IMG/VR virus record: IMGVR_UViG_2778261177_000008
DNA: 8,953 nt
Strand: one strand, 5' to 3'
From: a virus
Taxonomy: Duplodnaviria > Heunggongvirae > Uroviricota > Caudoviricetes
Positions within the stretch are counted from its first letter, which is position 1. Each line of letters starts with the position of its first letter. The translations under genes and the position numbers were made by a program. The notes below the pieces were generated by a model. That model was given only the letters and a program-made list of their open reading frames with translations, ran no database searches and was not told where the DNA came from. Positions 2,885 through 8,953 of the stretch are shown one piece after another.

Positions 2885-3115
2885 TCATGAGTAGAAGAAG
2901 TATGCCAGTTCTGCTTTTGAGCGCAGCCATTGTCTTGTTTTACAGGCTTTAAAAAGCCCATTCATCAATACCTTACCTGGCATTTTGCGCTTACCTGTTA
3001 AGTGAGTCTGGATATAGTGACTCGTCGTTCCGGCTTCCTGTGCGAAGGCTTCACGCTCATCCGGAGTAAGTGCAAGCCAGTGCTTTTTGAAATCAAAATG
3101 TCCGTTATCGCTCAT
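2885..3115 (-). CDS. Cro-like small HTH DNA-binding regulator
   Basis: 76-aa ORF with a helix-turn-helix-like segment (REAFAQEAGTTSHYIQTHLTGKRK). Transcribed divergently from the repressor gene across an operator-rich intergenic region and followed by a terminator, as for lambda cro. Confidence 0.6.
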   Translation of the reverse strand: MSDNGHFDFKKHWLALTPDEREAFAQEAGTTSHYIQTHLTGKRKMPGKVLMNGLFKACKTRQWLRSKAELAYFFYS

Positions 3116-3269: not shown

Positions 3270-3854
3270 ATGAAAAGTATCCAGGACGTCCGCAGGCAAA
3301 ATCTCAACGACTTGATCGACCGTGAATTCAATGGTGTTCAGACGCGGATGGCAGAAAAACTTGGAACTCAGGCAAATCTGGTAAACCGCTGGGCTCTTGG
3401 CAAGAAGGTTATCGGCGACCAGGTTGCGCGAAAAATTGAAGCTGCCGCCAATAAACCCCGTAACTGGCTTGATATCGATCGCTCGCTTTCTCAGGAAGGT
3501 TTTCAGCCTGTCGGCCCAAGCGACATTGGCCAGCTGGCGGCTCACAACCTGGAACGCTGGATGAGCGAAAGCCGCGACCTTTCAACACAGGGAAAACTTC
3601 ACCGCGCATCCGGCGTAGCCCAGGTGACAATCAGCCGCCTGTTAAACAATGAGGTCAGCGTTTCCATTTCCACCCTGGAGAATGTTGCATCCGCATTCGG
3701 GCGTCACGGCTATGAATTACTGATTCACCCGCACGACCCTGCGACCATCAACTATGATCGCTCGCGCTACGCATTGTTACCCGAAACCGAGAAAGCAAAG
3801 ATCGAAAGTTACATTGAATTTGTCATCAACCAGAACGAAAAAAGCAAACAATAA
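3270..3854 (+). CDS. Putative prophage repressor (CI-equivalent) with two tandem HTH_XRE-type domains
   Basis: 194-aa ORF with two HTH-like segments (GVQTRMAEKLGTQANLVNRWALGKK and LHRASGVAQVTISRLLNNEVS). No recognisable LexA-like S24 peptidase domain. Sits between the operator cluster and a strong terminator, divergent from the cro-like gene. No good SD: GAGG is 14 nt upstream of the ATG. Confidence 0.7.
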   Translation: MKSIQDVRRQNLNDLIDREFNGVQTRMAEKLGTQANLVNRWALGKKVIGDQVARKIEAAANKPRNWLDIDRSLSQEGFQPVGPSDIGQLAAHNLERWMSESRDLSTQGKLHRASGVAQVTISRLLNNEVSVSISTLENVASAFGRHGYELLIHPHDPATINYDRSRYALLPETEKAKIESYIEFVINQNEKSKQ

Positions 3855-3874: not shown

Positions 3875-3898
3875 AAGCCGCCTCATGGCGGCTTTTTT
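3875..3898 (+). terminator. Rho-independent terminator after the repressor gene
   Basis: GC-rich 8-bp stem AAGCCGCC (3875-3882), loop TCAT, GGCGGCTT (3887-3894), running into TTTTTT (3893-3898). Lies 20 nt downstream of the repressor stop TAA (3852-3854). Confidence 0.75.
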
Positions 3899-3911: not shown

Positions 3912-3988
3912 TTACCTTACGGGTAATTTTTTTAACTCATATCTATTGACACCAAACCAAATAAGCATAATTATTACCTCAACGGTAA
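3912..3988 (+). promoter_or_regulatory. pL-like early-left promoter with two flanking operators
   Basis: Perfect palindromes at 3912-3926 (TTACCttacgGGTAA) and 3974-3988 (TTACCtcaacGGTAA), with consensus -35 TTGACA at 3946-3951. The -10 is AT-rich (AATTAT at 3969-3974 with a 17-nt spacer) and overlaps the second operator. A GGTAA half-site lies at 3996-4000. Spacing is operator, 19 nt, -35, 22 nt, operator. Confidence 0.65.
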
Positions 3989-4162: not shown

Positions 4163-4462
4163 ATGAACGTTAATCAGCAGAAAAATCTTCAAAAAATCAT
4201 GCTGGCATTCGACAAGGACTACCGTCTGTCAGAACAGCTATATGACCGACAAGTTGAACTGATTGAGAGTATCCGGCTTCATCAACTGGCATCAACTTTC
4301 GACGTTGTAACAGTTAAAGGCGTTCGCCAGGAAGTACTGGAGGCCGCTAAAGACAGCCCTGAGTTCGAAGAACTGATGGATTCCTACCGGCGCGAGGCAA
4401 TGGCAATTATCGCCCGCTGGGATCTGGCTGATCAGCTTGATGGGCAGAGGGACGCGGCATGA
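4163..4462 (+). CDS. Hypothetical phage protein (99 aa)
   Basis: ORF track starts at 4148, but ATG 4163 has a strong SD GGAGGG (4151-4156) and begins 2 nt after the upstream stop. The stop overlaps the exonuclease start (ATGA at 4459-4462). No family recognised. Confidence 0.55.
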   Translation: MNVNQQKNLQKIMLAFDKDYRLSEQLYDRQVELIESIRLHQLASTFDVVTVKGVRQEVLEAAKDSPEFEELMDSYRREAMAIIARWDLADQLDGQRDAA

Positions 4463-5280
4463 ATCCGGGAATTTATTTCGATATCAGCAACGAGGACTAC
4501 CACGCCGGTGACGGCGTGAGTAAGTCGCAGCTAGATATGGTGGCTAAGAACCCTGCCCTTCTGAAATGGGTGAAGGCTGCTCCGGAAGACGAAGAGAAGA
4601 AGTCTGCACTGGACATGGGTACTGCTCTGCACTGTCTGCTTCTGGAACCTGGAGAGTTTGACAAACGCTTCATCGTTTCACCGAAATTCGATCGTCGGAC
4701 AAAACAAGGTAAAGCTGACGAAGAGGCATTTATTCGTGATGTAGCGGATATGGGGATTTCGGTACTTGATGCAGAGCAGTGGCGAAAACTGGAGCTGATG
4801 CGTGATAGCGCAATGGCTCACCCGGCGGCACGCTGGATGTTGGAAGCACCTGGTTACTGCGAAGCATCAATGTACTGGAACGATGAAGAGACGGGTGAGT
4901 TGTGCCGAATTCGTCCAGACAAATGGCTGAACGAGCACAACGTGATCGTCGACGTGAAAAAGGTTGCAGATATGGACCGTTTTGCACGCCACATCGAGGA
5001 ATTCCGCTACCACGTGCAGGACGCAATGTACCGCGAAGGCGCAATGAGGGTTACTGGTCAGCCGCATGGTTTTTTCTTTCTTGCCGTGAGCGAAAGCATT
5101 GATTGTGGTCGGTATCCGGTACGCGTGTTCGAGCTGGATGCGCCAGATGTCGATGCTGGGCACGCTCTGTTCCGCCGGGATCTGAATACCTATCACGAAT
5201 GCCGCATCAACGATGAATGGGGCGGAGTGGAAATTATTAAACGCCCTGACTGGGCACGTAAACAGGATATGTACGTATGA
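4459..5280 (+). CDS. PD-(D/E)xK-family exonuclease (RecE / exodeoxyribonuclease VIII-like domain), recombination partner of the annealase
   Basis: 273-aa ORF. N-terminal GIYFDISNEDYHAGDGVSKSQLDMV and the motif IRPDKW...VIVDVKK are characteristic of the RecE-like PDDEXK exonuclease family found in prophages (from memory). Translationally coupled to the downstream annealase gene (ATGA at 5277-5280). SD GAGGGA about 8 nt upstream. Confidence 0.7.
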   Translation: MNPGIYFDISNEDYHAGDGVSKSQLDMVAKNPALLKWVKAAPEDEEKKSALDMGTALHCLLLEPGEFDKRFIVSPKFDRRTKQGKADEEAFIRDVADMGISVLDAEQWRKLELMRDSAMAHPAARWMLEAPGYCEASMYWNDEETGELCRIRPDKWLNEHNVIVDVKKVADMDRFARHIEEFRYHVQDAMYREGAMRVTGQPHGFFFLAVSESIDCGRYPVRVFELDAPDVDAGHALFRRDLNTYHECRINDEWGGVEIIKRPDWARKQDMYV

Positions 5281-6158
5281 GCAATGATATCGCAATCACA
5301 TCACAACCAGGCGCAACTGTAGGCACTGCTGCGGCAATCTTCAGCCCCGAGGGCATGAATCAACTGGTGCGTTTCGCGGAGTTGATGTCACAAAGCAAAG
5401 CGACTGTACCGAAACATCTTGAAGGCAAACCTGCCGATTGCCTGGCGGTGACCATGCAGGCGGCACAGTGGGGAATGAACCCTTTCGCCGTGGCGCAGAA
5501 AACGCATGTGGTAAACGGAACGTTAGGCTACGAAGCACAGTTGGTAAACGCGGTCGTATCCTCTTCCAGCCTGCTGGCGACACGCCTGAATTATCGCTGG
5601 AGCGGTGACTGGTCGAATGTTAACGGCAAAACAGATAAATCACCGAATCTGACGGTAACTGTGTCAGCAGTTCTTAAAGGAGAAGCAGAACCCCGTGAGC
5701 TTACCATCAGTATGGCGCAAGCCGGAGTGCGTAACTCTCCATTGTGGGAACAGGATCCGCGCCAGCAACTTGCCTATCTTTGCACGAAACGATGGGCTCG
5801 CCTGCACGCTCCTGATGTACTTCTCGGTGTTTACACCCCAGACGAATTACAGGAAACGGCACCGCGCGTTGAGCGAGACATTACTCCGCAAACGACCACT
5901 GCTGCGGGAATGAACAGTCTGATCAACGCTAAACCAGCGAAAAAGCCTGATGAGCAAACGCGTAAAGCGGATAGCCGTGATCCAGAAGAAATGCTGATGG
6001 CCTTTACCAGCGCAGCGATGAATTACAGCACTGTCTCCGAACTGGATAAGGCTTACAAATACATTGCACAAAAACTTTCAGATGATGACGAACTGCTGGC
6101 AAAAGCCACCGACGTTTACAGCGTTCGTCGGGAAGAATTAAACGAAACATCTATGTAA
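5277..6158 (+). CDS. Single-strand annealing recombinase, Bet/Red-beta-like
   Basis: 293-aa ORF. Shares with lambda Bet, as I recall it, the N-terminal pattern ...A.Q.G.NP... (CLAVTMQAAQWGMNPFAV) and the C-terminal ERDITP motif (VERDITPQ here, PERDITPV in Bet). Immediately follows, and is coupled to, the exonuclease gene. Confidence 0.75.
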   Translation: MSNDIAITSQPGATVGTAAAIFSPEGMNQLVRFAELMSQSKATVPKHLEGKPADCLAVTMQAAQWGMNPFAVAQKTHVVNGTLGYEAQLVNAVVSSSSLLATRLNYRWSGDWSNVNGKTDKSPNLTVTVSAVLKGEAEPRELTISMAQAGVRNSPLWEQDPRQQLAYLCTKRWARLHAPDVLLGVYTPDELQETAPRVERDITPQTTTAAGMNSLINAKPAKKPDEQTRKADSRDPEEMLMAFTSAAMNYSTVSELDKAYKYIAQKLSDDDELLAKATDVYSVRREELNETSM

Positions 6159-6207
6159 CCACCACCGCGGCGCCATACGCGCCGCACTGCAACCAAGAGA
6201 GGTATTT

Positions 6208-6456
6208 ATGAAAGGTGCATTAGGTAAGAAGGAACTCCTGGCGGTGGTGCCACTGTCATGGAGCACTATCGACCGTATGGAGCGCGCAGGGGAATTTCCT
6301 AAACGCTGGTATATCACCGATAAACGCTGCGCATGGAACCGTGATGAAGTTGAGCGTTGGCTTGATGAACGTCAGGCAGCAAGCCCGGCAGAGTTCCAGG
6401 GTAAAAAACCTCCTGTTCAGCAACGTGTATATCGTCCCGTGAGCAACGCGGCATGA
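6208..6456 (+). CDS. AlpA-family prophage regulatory protein / putative excisionase (MerR-like HTH)
   Basis: 82-aa ORF with SD AGAGAGG 5 nt upstream. The pattern LSWSTIDRMERAGEFPKRWYITDKRCAWNRDEVERWLDERQ fits the AlpA/Xis-like winged-helix family (FP+..........W...E...W...R). Lies between the recombination genes and the integrase side, as xis does in lambda. Confidence 0.7.
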   Translation: MKGALGKKELLAVVPLSWSTIDRMERAGEFPKRWYITDKRCAWNRDEVERWLDERQAASPAEFQGKKPPVQQRVYRPVSNAA

Positions 6457-6565
6457 GTGTGCTGCTAAGGCACTGGAGCAAATGGTCAGGATGGTACTTA
6501 TTCCTAGCCTCTGTTTCAGCATGGCTTTATCTGCTGGCATTAATTTTCAGAGAGGGTTGGATTAA

Positions 6566-6865
6566 GTGAGAAAGTTAAGCCGACTTGAAAAATATCACAT
6601 GAACAAGGTTTCAATGCGCAGTCCGTCAAAGATTGTCGCCGTTACTCCTGCGGCGATAGAGATCGAAAAACGCGCGATTGAAAGAGAGAAAAAAGGGCAG
6701 TTCCGCATTGCCGCTCACCTTTGGCTTCAGTGTATGGATGTTGCTTCTGGTGATGTTGAGCGTGCAAGGATCGCGGTTCGCAGGGACCAATGTATCACAA
6801 AAGGTAACGGCCTTCGCCGTGGCGACTATAGCGGCATAGGATGTTGTGGGGTGGTTTATGACTAA
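6566..6865 (+). CDS. Small regulatory protein, PerC-like (tentative)
   Basis: 99-aa ORF; GTG start at 6566 with GAGGG about 9 nt upstream (alternative ATG at 6599). The segment EKKGQFRIAAHLWLQCMDVA...ERARIAVRRDQCI resembles the PerC-family motif as I remember it (LE..G.WRRAA..W...M...RR..C); unverified. Stop TAA 6863-6865 overlaps the methyltransferase start. Confidence 0.4.
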   Translation: MRKLSRLEKYHMNKVSMRSPSKIVAVTPAAIEIEKRAIEREKKGQFRIAAHLWLQCMDVASGDVERARIAVRRDQCITKGNGLRRGDYSGIGCCGVVYD

Positions 6866-7508
6866 GAAATACACACTAATCTATGCAGATCCACCCTGGG
6901 TATACCGGGACAAAGCCGCAGATGGTAATCGCGGTGCCGGTTTTAAATATCCGGTTATGAGTGTGCTGGACATCTGCCGCCTTCCTGTGTGGGATTTGGC
7001 CGATGAAAACTGTCTGTTGGCCATGTGGTGGGTGCCAACACAACCACTCGAAGCACTTAAAGTTGTTGAAGCATGGGGATTCCGTCTGATGACCATGAAG
7101 GGCTTCACGTGGATAAAATGTGGTAGTCGACAACCAGATAAACTGGTTATGGGTATGGGTCACATGACTCGCGCCAATAGTGAAGATTGCCTGTTTGCGG
7201 TAAAGGGAAAACTACCTACGCGCATTAATGCAGGGATCGTTCAGTCATTTACCGCACCGCGGCTTGAGCATTCAAGAAAACCAGATATCGTTCGTGAAAA
7301 ACTTGTGCAATTGTTAGGCGATGTTTCTCGCATTGAACTGTTCGCCCGCCAGTCATCTCATGGTTTCGATGTTTGGGGTAATCAGTGCGAAGACCCGGCA
7401 GTGCAACTACATCCTGGATACGCGTTGGATATTGGCGGATTAACAAATGCATTCAGCAATGCTCCGCTGTCACCAACAGACAACCAGGGGCAGGAGCGTG
7501 CAGCATGA
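6858..7508 (+). CDS. MT-A70-family DNA N6-adenine methyltransferase (orphan, phage-type)
   Basis: The N-terminal YTLIYADPPW contains the canonical DPPW catalytic motif of N6-adenine methyltransferases, and the length and layout fit phage MT-A70 enzymes. Start is ATG 6858, or GTG 6846 as in the ORF track. No restriction endonuclease gene is adjacent. Stop TGA 7506-7508 overlaps the next ATG. Confidence 0.8.
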   Translation: MTKKYTLIYADPPWVYRDKAADGNRGAGFKYPVMSVLDICRLPVWDLADENCLLAMWWVPTQPLEALKVVEAWGFRLMTMKGFTWIKCGSRQPDKLVMGMGHMTRANSEDCLFAVKGKLPTRINAGIVQSFTAPRLEHSRKPDIVREKLVQLLGDVSRIELFARQSSHGFDVWGNQCEDPAVQLHPGYALDIGGLTNAFSNAPLSPTDNQGQERAA

Positions 7509-7699
7509 ACAGGACATCACCAGCAGATTTAAGGAAATGCCTTGAAACTGCAAACATGCTTGCACACAGCGGGATCAGGTTTGTTCCAATTCCCGCTGTC
7601 ACTGATGCTGAATTTGCAACACTGTCAGCAATATTCGCAGATAAAATTGAATCACTGGCAGCAGAAGCCGAGATGGAAGAAAATCAGCAGAATAATTAA
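7505..7699 (+). CDS. Small hypothetical protein (64 aa) coupled to the methyltransferase
   Basis: ATG 7505 overlaps the methyltransferase stop (ATGA), with SD AGGAG 8 nt upstream. Sequence MNRTSPADLRKCLETANMLAHSGIRFVPIPAVTDAEFATLSAIFADKIESLAAEAEMEENQQNN has an acidic C-terminus. The ORF track's 7385 start lies inside the methyltransferase gene. No family recognised. Confidence 0.45.
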   Translation: MNRTSPADLRKCLETANMLAHSGIRFVPIPAVTDAEFATLSAIFADKIESLAAEAEMEENQQNN

Positions 7700-7702
7700 A
7701 CG

Positions 7703-8953
7703 TTATTCCCCCGCCATCCACTTCTCAAACTTCGACGGGGAGAACGGAATCAGATCCGTATGCTCCCCGTTAATCCATGAATCAATCATATCGGCCCACT
7801 GCTGCAACATGTAGGCGCGCTGTCTGGCGTATTCCGCTTTGTTATATACGGCGCGCACACCTTTCTGCTCATGTGCCAGAGCCTTTTCAATCCAGTCTGA
7901 AGGATAACCAGCCTCATGCAACAACGTACTGGCTGTACGGCGCATATCGTGTACGGTGAAGTCCTGAATATGCTCACCATCTTCCTTTATTATTTTCACC
8001 GTTCTGTCGATCAGAGAGTTCAGCGCGGCATTAGATAATGGCTTCCGGAAGTTGTAACGACCAGGAACCAGATATTCACTTCCACCAGCGCACATCTGCA
8101 ACCCGACCAATATATCCTGTGCCTGTTTAGGCAGGTAAATAACGTGCGCCCGGCTTCCCTTCATGCGGTCTGAAGGAATTGTCCATGTCCATTTTTTAAA
8201 ATCTATTTCGTCCCACGTTGCATTGGTGAATTCGCCTTTACGAACCATAGTGATAAGCACCAGCTTTAAAGCCATTTTCATAGTGCCCATAGCACCAATG
8301 GCATCCAGCGTGCGGAAGAACAGGCCAATTTCTTCTGGTGTCAGTGTTCGCTCTCGTGGTTTAAATATGGCGATAGACGAAGGTTTAATGTCAGCCGCAG
8401 GATTAAACAAACCATGACCACGGTCATTGGCGTGACGGTATACGCTGCTGATGATCTCCCTGGCCTGCACTGCTGTTGCCCGGCCACCGCGTTCGACAAT
8501 CCGGTCACACAAATCACGAACCATCGATGTGGTAATTTCAGCCATCATTTTGTTGCCAAGAACCGGAAGTATGTCACGGTCGATCACTGCCTGCTTCATT
8601 GCGCGGGTACTTTCAGCCAGGATGACGTGTTTCATATAACTGTCGGTATGTACCGCAAACGTCTCGGCACCACGAATCTTTTTTATACCGTCACGTTTAG
8701 CCGCAGCCGGTGACTGGCCTGCTTTAAGCAGCTTCTTTGCAGCAATCAGTTCTTCTCGCGCTTCTGCCAGGCTGATACCGTCACTCCCATACTGCCCGAT
8801 TACCAGCGTTTCGCGGCGACCGTTGATACGGTAGTCGTAGCGAAACGAGACCGTGCCTGACGTAAGCACAGCTACATACAGCCCATCACGATCGGAGACC
8901 TTGTACAGTTTGTCCTGCGGCTTGAGGTTTTTTAATTTTGTATCGGTAAGCAC
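7703..8953 (-). CDS. int: Tyrosine recombinase / integrase, P4 (CP4-57 IntA-like) family; 5' end at or just beyond the window edge
   Basis: 416 codons, open to the window end. The N-terminal LTDTKLKNLKPQDKLYKVSDRDGLYVAVLTSG matches the arm-binding domain of P4-type integrases. The C-terminal region has the HxxR box (HDMRRT) and conserved Tyr-containing region of tyrosine recombinases. The first codon in the window is GTG, so a few N-terminal residues probably lie outside. Confidence 0.9.
   Translation of the reverse strand: MLTDTKLKNLKPQDKLYKVSDRDGLYVAVLTSGTVSFRYDYRINGRRETLVIGQYGSDGISLAEAREELIAAKKLLKAGQSPAAAKRDGIKKIRGAETFAVHTDSYMKHVILAESTRAMKQAVIDRDILPVLGNKMMAEITTSMVRDLCDRIVERGGRATAVQAREIISSVYRHANDRGHGLFNPAADIKPSSIAIFKPRERTLTPEEIGLFFRTLDAIGAMGTMKMALKLVLITMVRKGEFTNATWDEIDFKKWTWTIPSDRMKGSRAHVIYLPKQAQDILVGLQMCAGGSEYLVPGRYNFRKPLSNAALNSLIDRTVKIIKEDGEHIQDFTVHDMRRTASTLLHEAGYPSDWIEKALAHEQKGVRAVYNKAEYARQRAYMLQQWADMIDSWINGEHTDLIPFSPSKFEKWMAGE

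Follow-up and report, generated by a model that had tools for sequence, protein, structure and literature searches.

Three overlapping genes beside the integrase gene of a phiV10-like prophage: a PerC-family protein, an orphan MT-A70 methyltransferase and a homologue of lambda Orf63

What is the role of three overlapping genes that lie beside the integrase gene of a prophage, and do their products act together? The question is raised by an 8,953-nucleotide stretch of DNA (the window) from the IMG/VR record IMGVR_UViG_2778261177_000008 (Caudoviricetes), in which genes for a PerC-like protein, an orphan methyltransferase of the MT-A70 family and a 64-amino-acid protein follow one another between an excisionase-type gene and int. 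We refer to these three genes as the cassette. The window represents the early-left arm of an Escherichia coli prophage from the genus Uetakevirus (epsilon15-type, phiV10-like): it contains the repressor gene, genes for recombination, alpA/xis, the cassette and int, which is convergent. The cassette has been annotated before and is very common in phiV10-like prophages, with experimentally studied close homologues for two of its three genes, and in this sense our finding is mostly ordinary. The new lead from our analysis is the synteny between PerC-domain genes and phage methyltransferase genes; the rest is already known.

The distal end of an early operon

The explanation that we favor, and consider reasonably probable, is that the cassette forms the accessory, promoter-distal end of the early-left operon, matching the exo-xis region of lambda, and that it encodes a DNA-methylating MT-A70 enzyme, a pro-lytic homologue of lambda Orf63 and a PerC-type regulator, all expressed early. 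Transcription would start at a repressor-controlled promoter near positions 3946-3974 and continue through exo, recT, alpA, an open reading frame (ORF) of 38 codons and the genes for the PerC-like protein, the MT-A70 enzyme and the Orf63 homologue, with ribosomes being handed from gene to gene via overlapping stop and start codons. The cassette proteins would be made early after infection or induction, and a quiet lysogen would not make them. For the MT-A70 enzyme, DNA is the most likely substrate, with GATC as the probable target site as reported for its close homologue M.EcoGV, and this methylation would mark replicating phage DNA, leading to escape from restriction in new hosts or to independence of the host's Dam methylase. 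The Orf63 homologue would tip the lysis-lysogeny decision towards lysis, as in phages lambda and phi24B. The PerC-family protein would be a small, three-helix regulator of a protein-binding type that, by analogy with Pch, may relieve silencing by H-NS. Its recurrent place just upstream of phage methyltransferase genes suggests that it is a conserved operon gene beside which modification genes insert.

The three ORFs that a previous sequence-only reading had described in this region are all present, on the + strand, with overlapping stop and start codons. The gene for the PerC-family protein (99 amino acids) extends from GTG at 6566 to TAA at 6865, that for the MT-A70 methyltransferase (216 amino acids) from ATG at 6858 to TGA at 7508, and that for the 64-residue protein, a member of the DUF1382 family, from ATG at 7505 to TAA at 7699. 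The first two genes overlap by 8 nt (ATGACTAA) and the last two by the sequence ATGA. The same reading had proposed that these genes form one translationally coupled unit, and although the overlaps are real the unit does not begin where it was thought to: an intervening 38-codon ORF (6453-6569, +) was missed, and the chain of overlaps includes five genes, starting from alpA (6208-6456, +), which is joined to the 38-codon ORF by ATGA, with the latter joined to the PerC-like gene by GTGA. Stop/start overlaps are also seen further upstream, between orf104 and exo at 4459 and between exo and recT at 5277, and every junction from orf104 to the 64-codon ORF is either overlapping or short. Overlapping genes are the norm throughout this operon, and are no special trait of the cassette.

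Each start codon in the cassette has a Shine-Dalgarno-like run of purines 5-10 nt on its 5' side (GAGAGGG for 6566, GGGGTGG for 6858, and AGGAG at 7492-7496). In the phiV10 RefSeq record the PerC-like protein is instead started at an internal ATG, which corresponds to position 6599 and gives a product of 88 amino acids. The comparative evidence supports GTG 6566 as the better start, because the amino acids at the start of the longer protein (first 11 residues, xKLxxLEKYH) are conserved in epsilon15 gp31 and Tyrion gp32 as well as in about 25 more homologues.

Only one promoter-like match (TTGACA-17-AATTAT, at 3946-3974) is present on the + strand between positions 3100 and 8953. It lies just 3' of the repressor gene (3270-3854) and a terminator (3875-3894), and in the epsilon15 record repressor operators are annotated at the equivalent position. 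We regard it as the candidate early-left promoter of the whole operon that ends in the cassette. A scan of the + strand from 6100 to 7700 identified no promoter-like or terminator-like site. Because the nearest promoter-like site on the same strand is the one at 3946-3974, the cassette genes are probably silent in a lysogen, to judge from these consensus matches. Between recT and alpA we also noticed a G+C-rich stem-loop lacking a T-run (GCGGCGC-CATAC-GCGCCGC, at 6167-6185, +), read from the sequence, whose counterpart in epsilon15 is annotated as 'stem-loop; transcriptional pausing'.

The interval 6100-7760 is 98.7% identical to Escherichia phage phiV10, and 98.7-99% identical across phiV10 and related records. 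Near-identical sequences occur in O157 typing phages 9 and 10, EC.W1-9, YDC107_2 and others, and these records have the same gene order and annotation as the window. In the RefSeq record for phiV10 (NC_007804) the genes are labeled as AlpA family regulator, membrane protein, PerC-family transcriptional activator, DNA methyltransferase, DUF1382 family protein and integrase, with the cassette corresponding to PhiV10p34-p33-p32 (gp31-gp29 in epsilon15). Of 5426 complete E. coli genomes, 537 contain the interval, at 95-99% identity, so about a tenth of sequenced E. coli harbor a prophage of the type that has this cassette. In Salmonella phage epsilon15 the gene order is the same and the sequences have diverged: its PerC-like and methyltransferase proteins are each 78% identical to those in the window, there is an additional 35-codon ORF, the methyltransferase has 192 amino acids and no C-terminal tail, and a 60-residue membrane protein takes the place of the DUF1382 protein. 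In comparisons to orthologs from epsilon15, Tyrion or Shiga toxin (Stx) phages, all the genes show purifying selection, with ratios of nonsynonymous to synonymous divergence (dN/dS) of 0.06-0.22 where dS is near saturation.

Several points weigh against the account that we favor. For the promoter there is no more than a match to the consensus, and the kinship of the PerC-like protein to PerC and Pch is distant, with 30 bits over 46 residues. GATC occurs 31 times in the window as compared to an expectation of 35 ± 5.4, which is neither depletion nor enrichment and lends no support either way, and an E. coli host that is dam+ would seem to have no need of another GATC methylase. In addition, an enzyme from a Stx phage that is 83% identical to the MT-A70 protein was found to be almost inactive on DNA in vitro when alone, even on unmethylated GATC DNA, and to prefer 16S rRNA in 30S subunits when combined with its partner protein PNB-2 (PMC10810198).

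DNA or ribosomal RNA as the methyltransferase substrate

The product of the second cassette gene passes the curated threshold of the Pfam MT-A70 domain (PF05063), with a score of 79.7 bits and a match to the whole profile (positions 1-172 of 172), and contains the catalytic motif DPPW at residues 11-14 (YADPPW, 9-14), in agreement with the earlier assignment. It also scores 257 bits against the PADLOC model MTase_II. By family membership it is a partnerless type II-like (beta-class) N6-adenine methyltransferase. Its description as an orphan also stands: neither the window nor the stretch examined in the annotation of phiV10 shows an endonuclease partner, and the neighboring proteins (the 38-residue, PerC-like and DUF1382 proteins) have no match among the PADLOC defence models. 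Elsewhere in the window, a 115-codon ORF at 500-847 on the − strand, annotated as DUF1064 in phiV10, has a PD...E.K-like motif (YTPDF...ELHEVKG) and probably encodes a small nuclease belonging to the replication module; being 6 kb away and on the opposite strand, it is no candidate for a methyltransferase partner.

Residues 1-187 of the enzyme are 83% identical (E = 8e-124) to M.EcoPA8orf6770P, encoded by the Stx2a phage PA8. This enzyme and M.EcoGV resemble the one described here in being prophage-borne orphans with a DPPW motif, whose genes are located near int and followed by a DUF1382 gene, but the phage lineages are different: ours is a podovirus of the genus Uetakevirus, whereas the Stx enzyme is from Sepvirinae. 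Gong, Chakraborty and Koudelka (NAR 2024) found that M.EcoPA8orf6770P increases spontaneous prophage induction and virulence, that a DPPW-to-APPA mutant is inactive and loses this phenotype, and that the enzyme forms a 1:1 complex with PNB-2, a winged-helix protein of 143 amino acids encoded directly upstream; the modified base was not mapped, as these authors themselves note (PMC10810198). A stationary-phase promoter located before PNB-2 in the Stx phage is known as a personal communication only (PMC10810198).

These results raise the possibility, which the sequence-only reading had not considered, that the present enzyme is not a DNA methyltransferase but an m6A methyltransferase of 16S rRNA that tunes translation and hence prophage induction, as for M.EcoPA8orf6770P. 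The high identity extends across the whole catalytic domain, the in vitro preferences and the mutant phenotype of the Stx enzyme both point this way, and in both phage lineages the gene adjoins a homologue of Orf63, which also shifts the lysis-lysogeny balance. The parts of the Stx system that are associated with activity on rRNA are, however, not seen here. Among the ORFs of the window we found no relative of PNB-2, the specificity subunit, and the PerC-like protein encoded at the corresponding upstream position is unrelated to it (no alignment by BLASTP, and a probability of 0.1% by hhalign). The C-terminal region of about 27 residues that has been proposed to bind PNB-2 in the STEC-type (Shiga toxin-producing E. 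coli) enzyme is also not in the present enzyme: the alignment ends at residue 187, and the two tails are unrelated. Instead, residues 188-216 form a lineage-specific tail of 29 residues that is common to Tyrion and several enterobacterial prophages. With the modified base of the Stx enzyme itself unmapped, we think it unlikely that the enzyme in the window acts on rRNA.

The relatives of the prophage also bear on this point. In E. coli prophages that have the same flanking genes (recT-alpA-PerC...int-guaA), MT-A70 can be replaced by non-homologous enzymes from bona fide DNA methyltransferase families: a phage Dam (PF05869) at two loci (L134 and L136), and a fusion of a C5-methylase and Dam at two others (L135 and L137). 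The ORF directly upstream of MT-A70 in relatives codes for DndB (Citrobacter werkmanii, L014) or an HNH endonuclease, and in Klebsiella and Scandinavium (L009/L015) there is a PD-(D/E)XK-like ORF directly 5' of MT-A70, with a PDDEXK_5 score of 23.9 bits that is below the cut-off of 26.1. Because relatives hold genes for Dam, C5-methylase+Dam, DndB, PD-(D/E)XK-like and HNH proteins at this place, we suggest that the methyltransferase slot is a slot for DNA modification. The PD-(D/E)XK-like proteins inserted before the methyltransferase in sister prophages are 168-192 residues long, and some of these loci could be true restriction-modification pairs. Another ORF that precedes MT-A70 or Dam in sister prophages codes for a protein of 220-246 amino acids that starts with MKERGMIFN..KTQ(T/V)RR and has no Pfam match. 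We took the ORFs inserted between the genes for the PerC-like protein and the methyltransferase from loci L009, L015, L131, L132 and L134.

Among solved structures, those most similar in sequence are the MT-A70 family chains 7f4r, 7f4l and 7yi8 (E about 1e-13), with METTL3 more distant (E about 6e-6). We take the three former chains to be those of the ciliate MTA1c complex, a DNA 6mA methyltransferase. Because PNB-2 and the tail that matches it are missing, and because of the slot's context and these structures, we rate DNA methylation (probably of GATC) as more likely than rRNA methylation, a choice that sequence cannot decide. Regarding the target site, the close homologue M.EcoGV of E. coli O104:H4 is cited as methylating GATC in vivo when over-produced (PMC10810198, citing Fang 2012), and REBASE-type tables give GATC as the specificity of such enzymes (PMC6602927, Table 3). 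Self-protection of phage DNA, one of the roles suggested in the sequence-only reading, would thus be the most likely function of the enzyme, with a published rival in the methylation of 16S rRNA. As a natural variant that has neither PNB-2 nor the matching tail, this enzyme offers a clean test case for whether these prophage MT-A70 proteins, which are widespread, act on DNA (at GATC) or on 16S rRNA.

The last slot of the operon and its boundaries

The 64-residue protein, previously called uncharacterised, belongs to a family with a known structure. It matches Pfam DUF1382 with a score of 102.3 bits (cut-off 27), and 60 of its 64 residues (3-62) align to lambda Orf63 (PDB 8DSB) with an E-value of 1.8e-12, including the helix-strand-helix core. 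On the basis of this similarity the protein is a homologue of Orf63, and family membership predicts that it forms an Orf63-type dimer. The two proteins are about 45-50% identical and in both phages the gene lies between the recombination and integration genes of the early-left operon, although here it is the last gene before the convergent int whereas in lambda it lies between exo and xis. Lambda Orf63 is an obligate dimer whose structure has been solved, and according to Khan et al. (2024) it is expressed very early and favors lysis; demonstrations of these properties are confined to lambda and phi24B. An amphipathic helix can bind in a hydrophobic cleft of Orf63, for which these authors give no known natural ligand (PMC10869804).

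Could the DUF1382 protein be an accessory subunit of the methyltransferase, the partnership that the earlier reading proposed to look for? The two genes are translationally coupled through their ATGA overlap, the order MT-A70 then DUF1382 recurs in Stx2a phages of another lineage, in an accessory region beside xis and int, and the Orf63 cleft has room for a ligand of the kind just described. The distribution of the genes argues otherwise. To sample variants of the third slot we used 80 IMG/VR contigs whose PerC-like gene is at least 98% identical to ours. All 80 have MT-A70, and the third slot contains DUF1382 in 46 of them and a NinI-type (calcineurin-like) phosphatase gene in 29. In the phages with the phosphatase (PAS61-type), the replacement of DUF1382 occurs exactly at the ATG start codon, and homology between the two variants stops exactly three bases past the shared junction GGAGCGTGCAGCATG. 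Other small ORFs, unrelated to DUF1382, occupy the slot in epsilon15, Tyrion and Klebsiella relatives. No DUF1382 gene was found downstream of MT-A70 in any of 40 species-level MT-A70 loci. Lambda has orf63 and is not known to encode a methyltransferase of this kind. The partner identified by experiment in the Stx phage is the upstream protein PNB-2 (PMC10810198). Because a NinI-type phosphatase replaces it in sister phages, DUF1382 is not an obligate partner of the methyltransferase; we rejected it as a conserved partner, and with this largely refuted by distribution we consider a subunit role to be extremely improbable.

We also found a 102-residue database protein (P0117) that joins a DUF1382 domain to a segment 100% identical to approximately residues 1-46 of the PerC-like protein, so an in-frame deletion has apparently removed the methyltransferase gene from one genome or more. 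The sequence-only reading had placed the cassette in an accessory-gene position, and the stretch from the PerC-like gene to int is indeed hypervariable among sister prophages. Three junctions of the operon (4454-4462, 6448-6456 and 7500-7508) share the motif GCNGCATGA, in which an Ala-Ala-stop sequence overlaps a Met codon. The motif is also present at loci L003, L005, L128 and L134, usually preceded by GGAG or GGGG, and many ORFs of related operons end in ...AA. Because of this, and because the DUF1382/NinI exchange breaks right at a GCNGCATGA-type junction, the conserved boundary sequences may be exchange points for gene cassettes.

Of the flanking genes, alpA encodes an excisionase/regulator of 82 amino acids (Pfam Phage_AlpA 24.2 bits, cut-off 21; phrog_66) that is 85% identical to epsilon15 gp33 and forms the first link of the overlapping chain. 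The 38-residue product of the next ORF, which joins alpA to the PerC-like gene, is a predicted membrane protein with the hydrophobic core MSVLLRHWSKWSGWYLFLASVSAWLYLLALIFREGWIK; it corresponds to phiV10p35 and epsilon15 gp32 (79% identical, dN/dS 0.16) and is present in 11 related loci. Further upstream, the genes for an exonuclease (DUF3799 / PD-(D/E)XK, 273 amino acids; 4459-5280, +) and RecT (293 amino acids; 5277-6158, +) are separate ORFs that overlap by ATGA, whereas the phiV10 RefSeq record gives a single RecE-RecT fusion protein of 586 amino acids. In epsilon15 and some Klebsiella relatives the exonuclease is of the YqaJ type instead of the DUF3799 type.

The prophage end of the cassette is marked by int (7703-8953, −), which begins 3 nt past the stop codon of the DUF1382 gene and is convergent with the operon. 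It codes for a P4-type tyrosine integrase of 416 amino acids (Pfam Arm-DNA-bind_3, Phage_int_M and Phage_integrase) with the coordinates of the phiV10 int gene. In three relatives (L130, L134 and L136) the gene beyond the integrase is guaA, coding for GMP synthase, and therefore this prophage family integrates next to guaA; the window stops at the int start codon, which places its own attachment site outside our view.

PerC-like proteins and their methyltransferase neighbors

The assignment of the first cassette protein to the PerC family was borne out by profile searches. Residues 35-80 match Pfam PF06069 with 30.1 bits (cut-off 22.6), the full length (1-99 of 99) matches phrog_868 ('transcriptional activator') with an E-value of 5.7e-62, and homologues are named 'PerC family transcriptional regulator' in their source records. 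Membership of the ANR (AraC negative regulator) family NF033650 was rejected, as the score of 23.6 bits is below the cut-off of 32 and amounts to a resemblance. AlphaFold2 predicts a core of three helices (residues 28-85), for which the predicted local distance difference test score (pLDDT) is 85-91. A fold search with this model against PDB retrieved only generic MIT/TPR-like three-helix bundles (best E-value 0.36), which do not permit transfer of a function. As modeled, the protein does not resemble DNA-binding proteins of the helix-turn-helix type, and its fold is compatible with relief of H-NS silencing without being diagnostic of it.

PerC of enteropathogenic E. coli (EPEC) and PchA-C of enterohaemorrhagic E. 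coli (EHEC) are likewise small, horizontally acquired proteins with the core A..LE.KG.(Y/W)RRAA..W and a predicted helical bundle, and Pch displaces H-NS from the DNA that it silences (PMC4764244). Only the core of about 46 residues can be aligned between them and the protein studied here, whose subfamily has motifs of its own at the N-terminus (LEKYH) and C-terminus (RR..CI..N....YSGI). Unlike PerC and Pch, it is encoded in a phage early operon beside a methyltransferase gene, and activation of ler or of LEE (locus of enterocyte effacement) is not indicated. Activating ler/LEE1 or relieving H-NS silencing is what defines PerC and Pch functionally, and it is known from these proteins only (PMC4764244).

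The sequence-only reading had suggested that the prophage may encode a regulator able to act on host genes, and in its full form this would make the PerC-like protein a regulator for lysogenic conversion, controlling adhesion, motility or virulence loci as PerC and Pch do. In its favor are the PF06069 score above the cut-off, the precedent of a prophage-encoded Pch that de-silences H-NS-bound loci of its host (PMC4764244), and the fact that the element is common in both pathogenic and commensal E. coli. Several findings go against it. The similarity to the family is confined to the three-helix core. The gene is located deep inside a repressor-controlled early operon with no promoter-like site before it, and because the genes are probably silent in a lysogen, regulation of the host during lysogeny is weakened as a hypothesis. 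Moreover, conservation of the gene extends to phages that infect Salmonella, Enterobacter, Klebsiella and Citrobacter, and to our knowledge targets such as LEE are not known in most of these hosts, which argues that the role of the protein is internal to the phage. We consider a host-regulator function very unlikely.

A different kind of association emerged from gene order. PerC-domain genes are found immediately upstream of orphan adenine methyltransferase genes in two unrelated genomic settings, often with an overlap of 4-43 nt. The first setting is between alpA and int in Uetakevirus prophages, where the PerC-like gene is followed by MT-A70, Dam or C5+Dam. The second is the nin region of lambdoid phages, between a replication gene and rusA. 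For example, in SfV, ST64B, Lys8385Vzw, Stx2a_1447, 720R4 and Kati, a gene for a protein with a winged helix and a PerC domain is followed by a Dam gene (PF05869). Homology between the two groups of PerC-like proteins was detected by hhalign with a probability of 96%. In the second setting, PerC-like genes followed by MT-A70 are also present in Lonsdalea, Acerihabitans, Dryocola and Buttiauxella (with Pfam PerC scores of 44, 36 and 31 bits for three of the four), and Sodalis has the order PerC-like, PAPS reductase, Dam, C5 methylase. When relatives of MT-A70 were sampled from one genome per species, a PerC-like gene was directly upstream in 7 of 40 loci and one or two genes away in 4 more. In searches of viral contigs for further PerC-like genes, the Acerihabitans-type sequence retrieved one contig and the window sequence retrieved near-identical phiV10-like contigs only, which served to count the variants of the third slot. 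The yfdN-type module found in SfV, ST64B and further lambdoid phages thus shares with our window a PerC-domain gene directly upstream of an orphan adenine methyltransferase gene, and differs from it in its location in the nin region after the replication gene, in its PF05869 methyltransferase and in an extra N-terminal MarR-like domain. A literature search combining PerC, adenine methyltransferase and prophage retrieved no paper that links PerC to a methyltransferase.

In the lambdoid settings (L023, 3567-4010; L026, 3492-4004; and L138, 2204-2692, which is SfV orf40) the PerC domain is fused to this N-terminal MarR-like winged helix, for which the Pfam matches are weak (14-20 bits). PNB-2 and Tyrion gp30, whose genes lie just upstream of MT-A70, are likewise small proteins of the winged-helix type, and the two types of protein, small winged-helix and PerC, seem to alternate at this position.

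Do the PerC-like protein and the methyltransferase constitute a functional two-gene module, in which the former controls the expression or activity of the latter and the pair moves between phages? The recurrence of the arrangement in unrelated settings and its frequency in the species-level sample speak for this, and in the SfV record the -35 and -10 signals of dam are annotated inside the PerC-like gene orf40. Conversely, because the partner methyltransferases come from unrelated families (MT-A70, Dam PF05869 and C5), a specific subunit contact is unlikely. Phage Ayreon has a PerC-like gene and no methyltransferase, and the PerC-like genes of N4-like phages do not have a methyltransferase neighbor. 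For most MT-A70 relatives, the upstream neighbors are instead genes for NinB, replication proteins, SSB or HNH proteins, and DUF1317, winged helix-turn-helix (wHTH), DndB and nuclease genes are often inserted between the members of the pair. The sample is also small, with many of the phage examples deriving from one recent module. A functional module seems doubtful to us, and our preferred explanation remains that the PerC-like gene is a conserved gene of the operon beside which modification genes insert.

As a similarly doubtful generalization, PerC-domain proteins of temperate enterobacterial phages might be dedicated companions of orphan DNA methyltransferases, timing or directing methylation as a controller or adaptor, with the pair traveling between the int-proximal region of Uetakevirus and the nin region of lambdoid phages. 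Each companion would be a small three-helix protein whose gene directly precedes the modification gene, often with coupled translation, and the methyltransferase in the slot could be of any family. If the link between PerC and methyltransferases is functional, it would be the first phage-internal role for a family known only from virulence regulation. If the generalization is true, the ancestral role of the PerC family would be phage-internal and linked to DNA modification, and the PerC and Pch proteins of pathogens would be later recruits.

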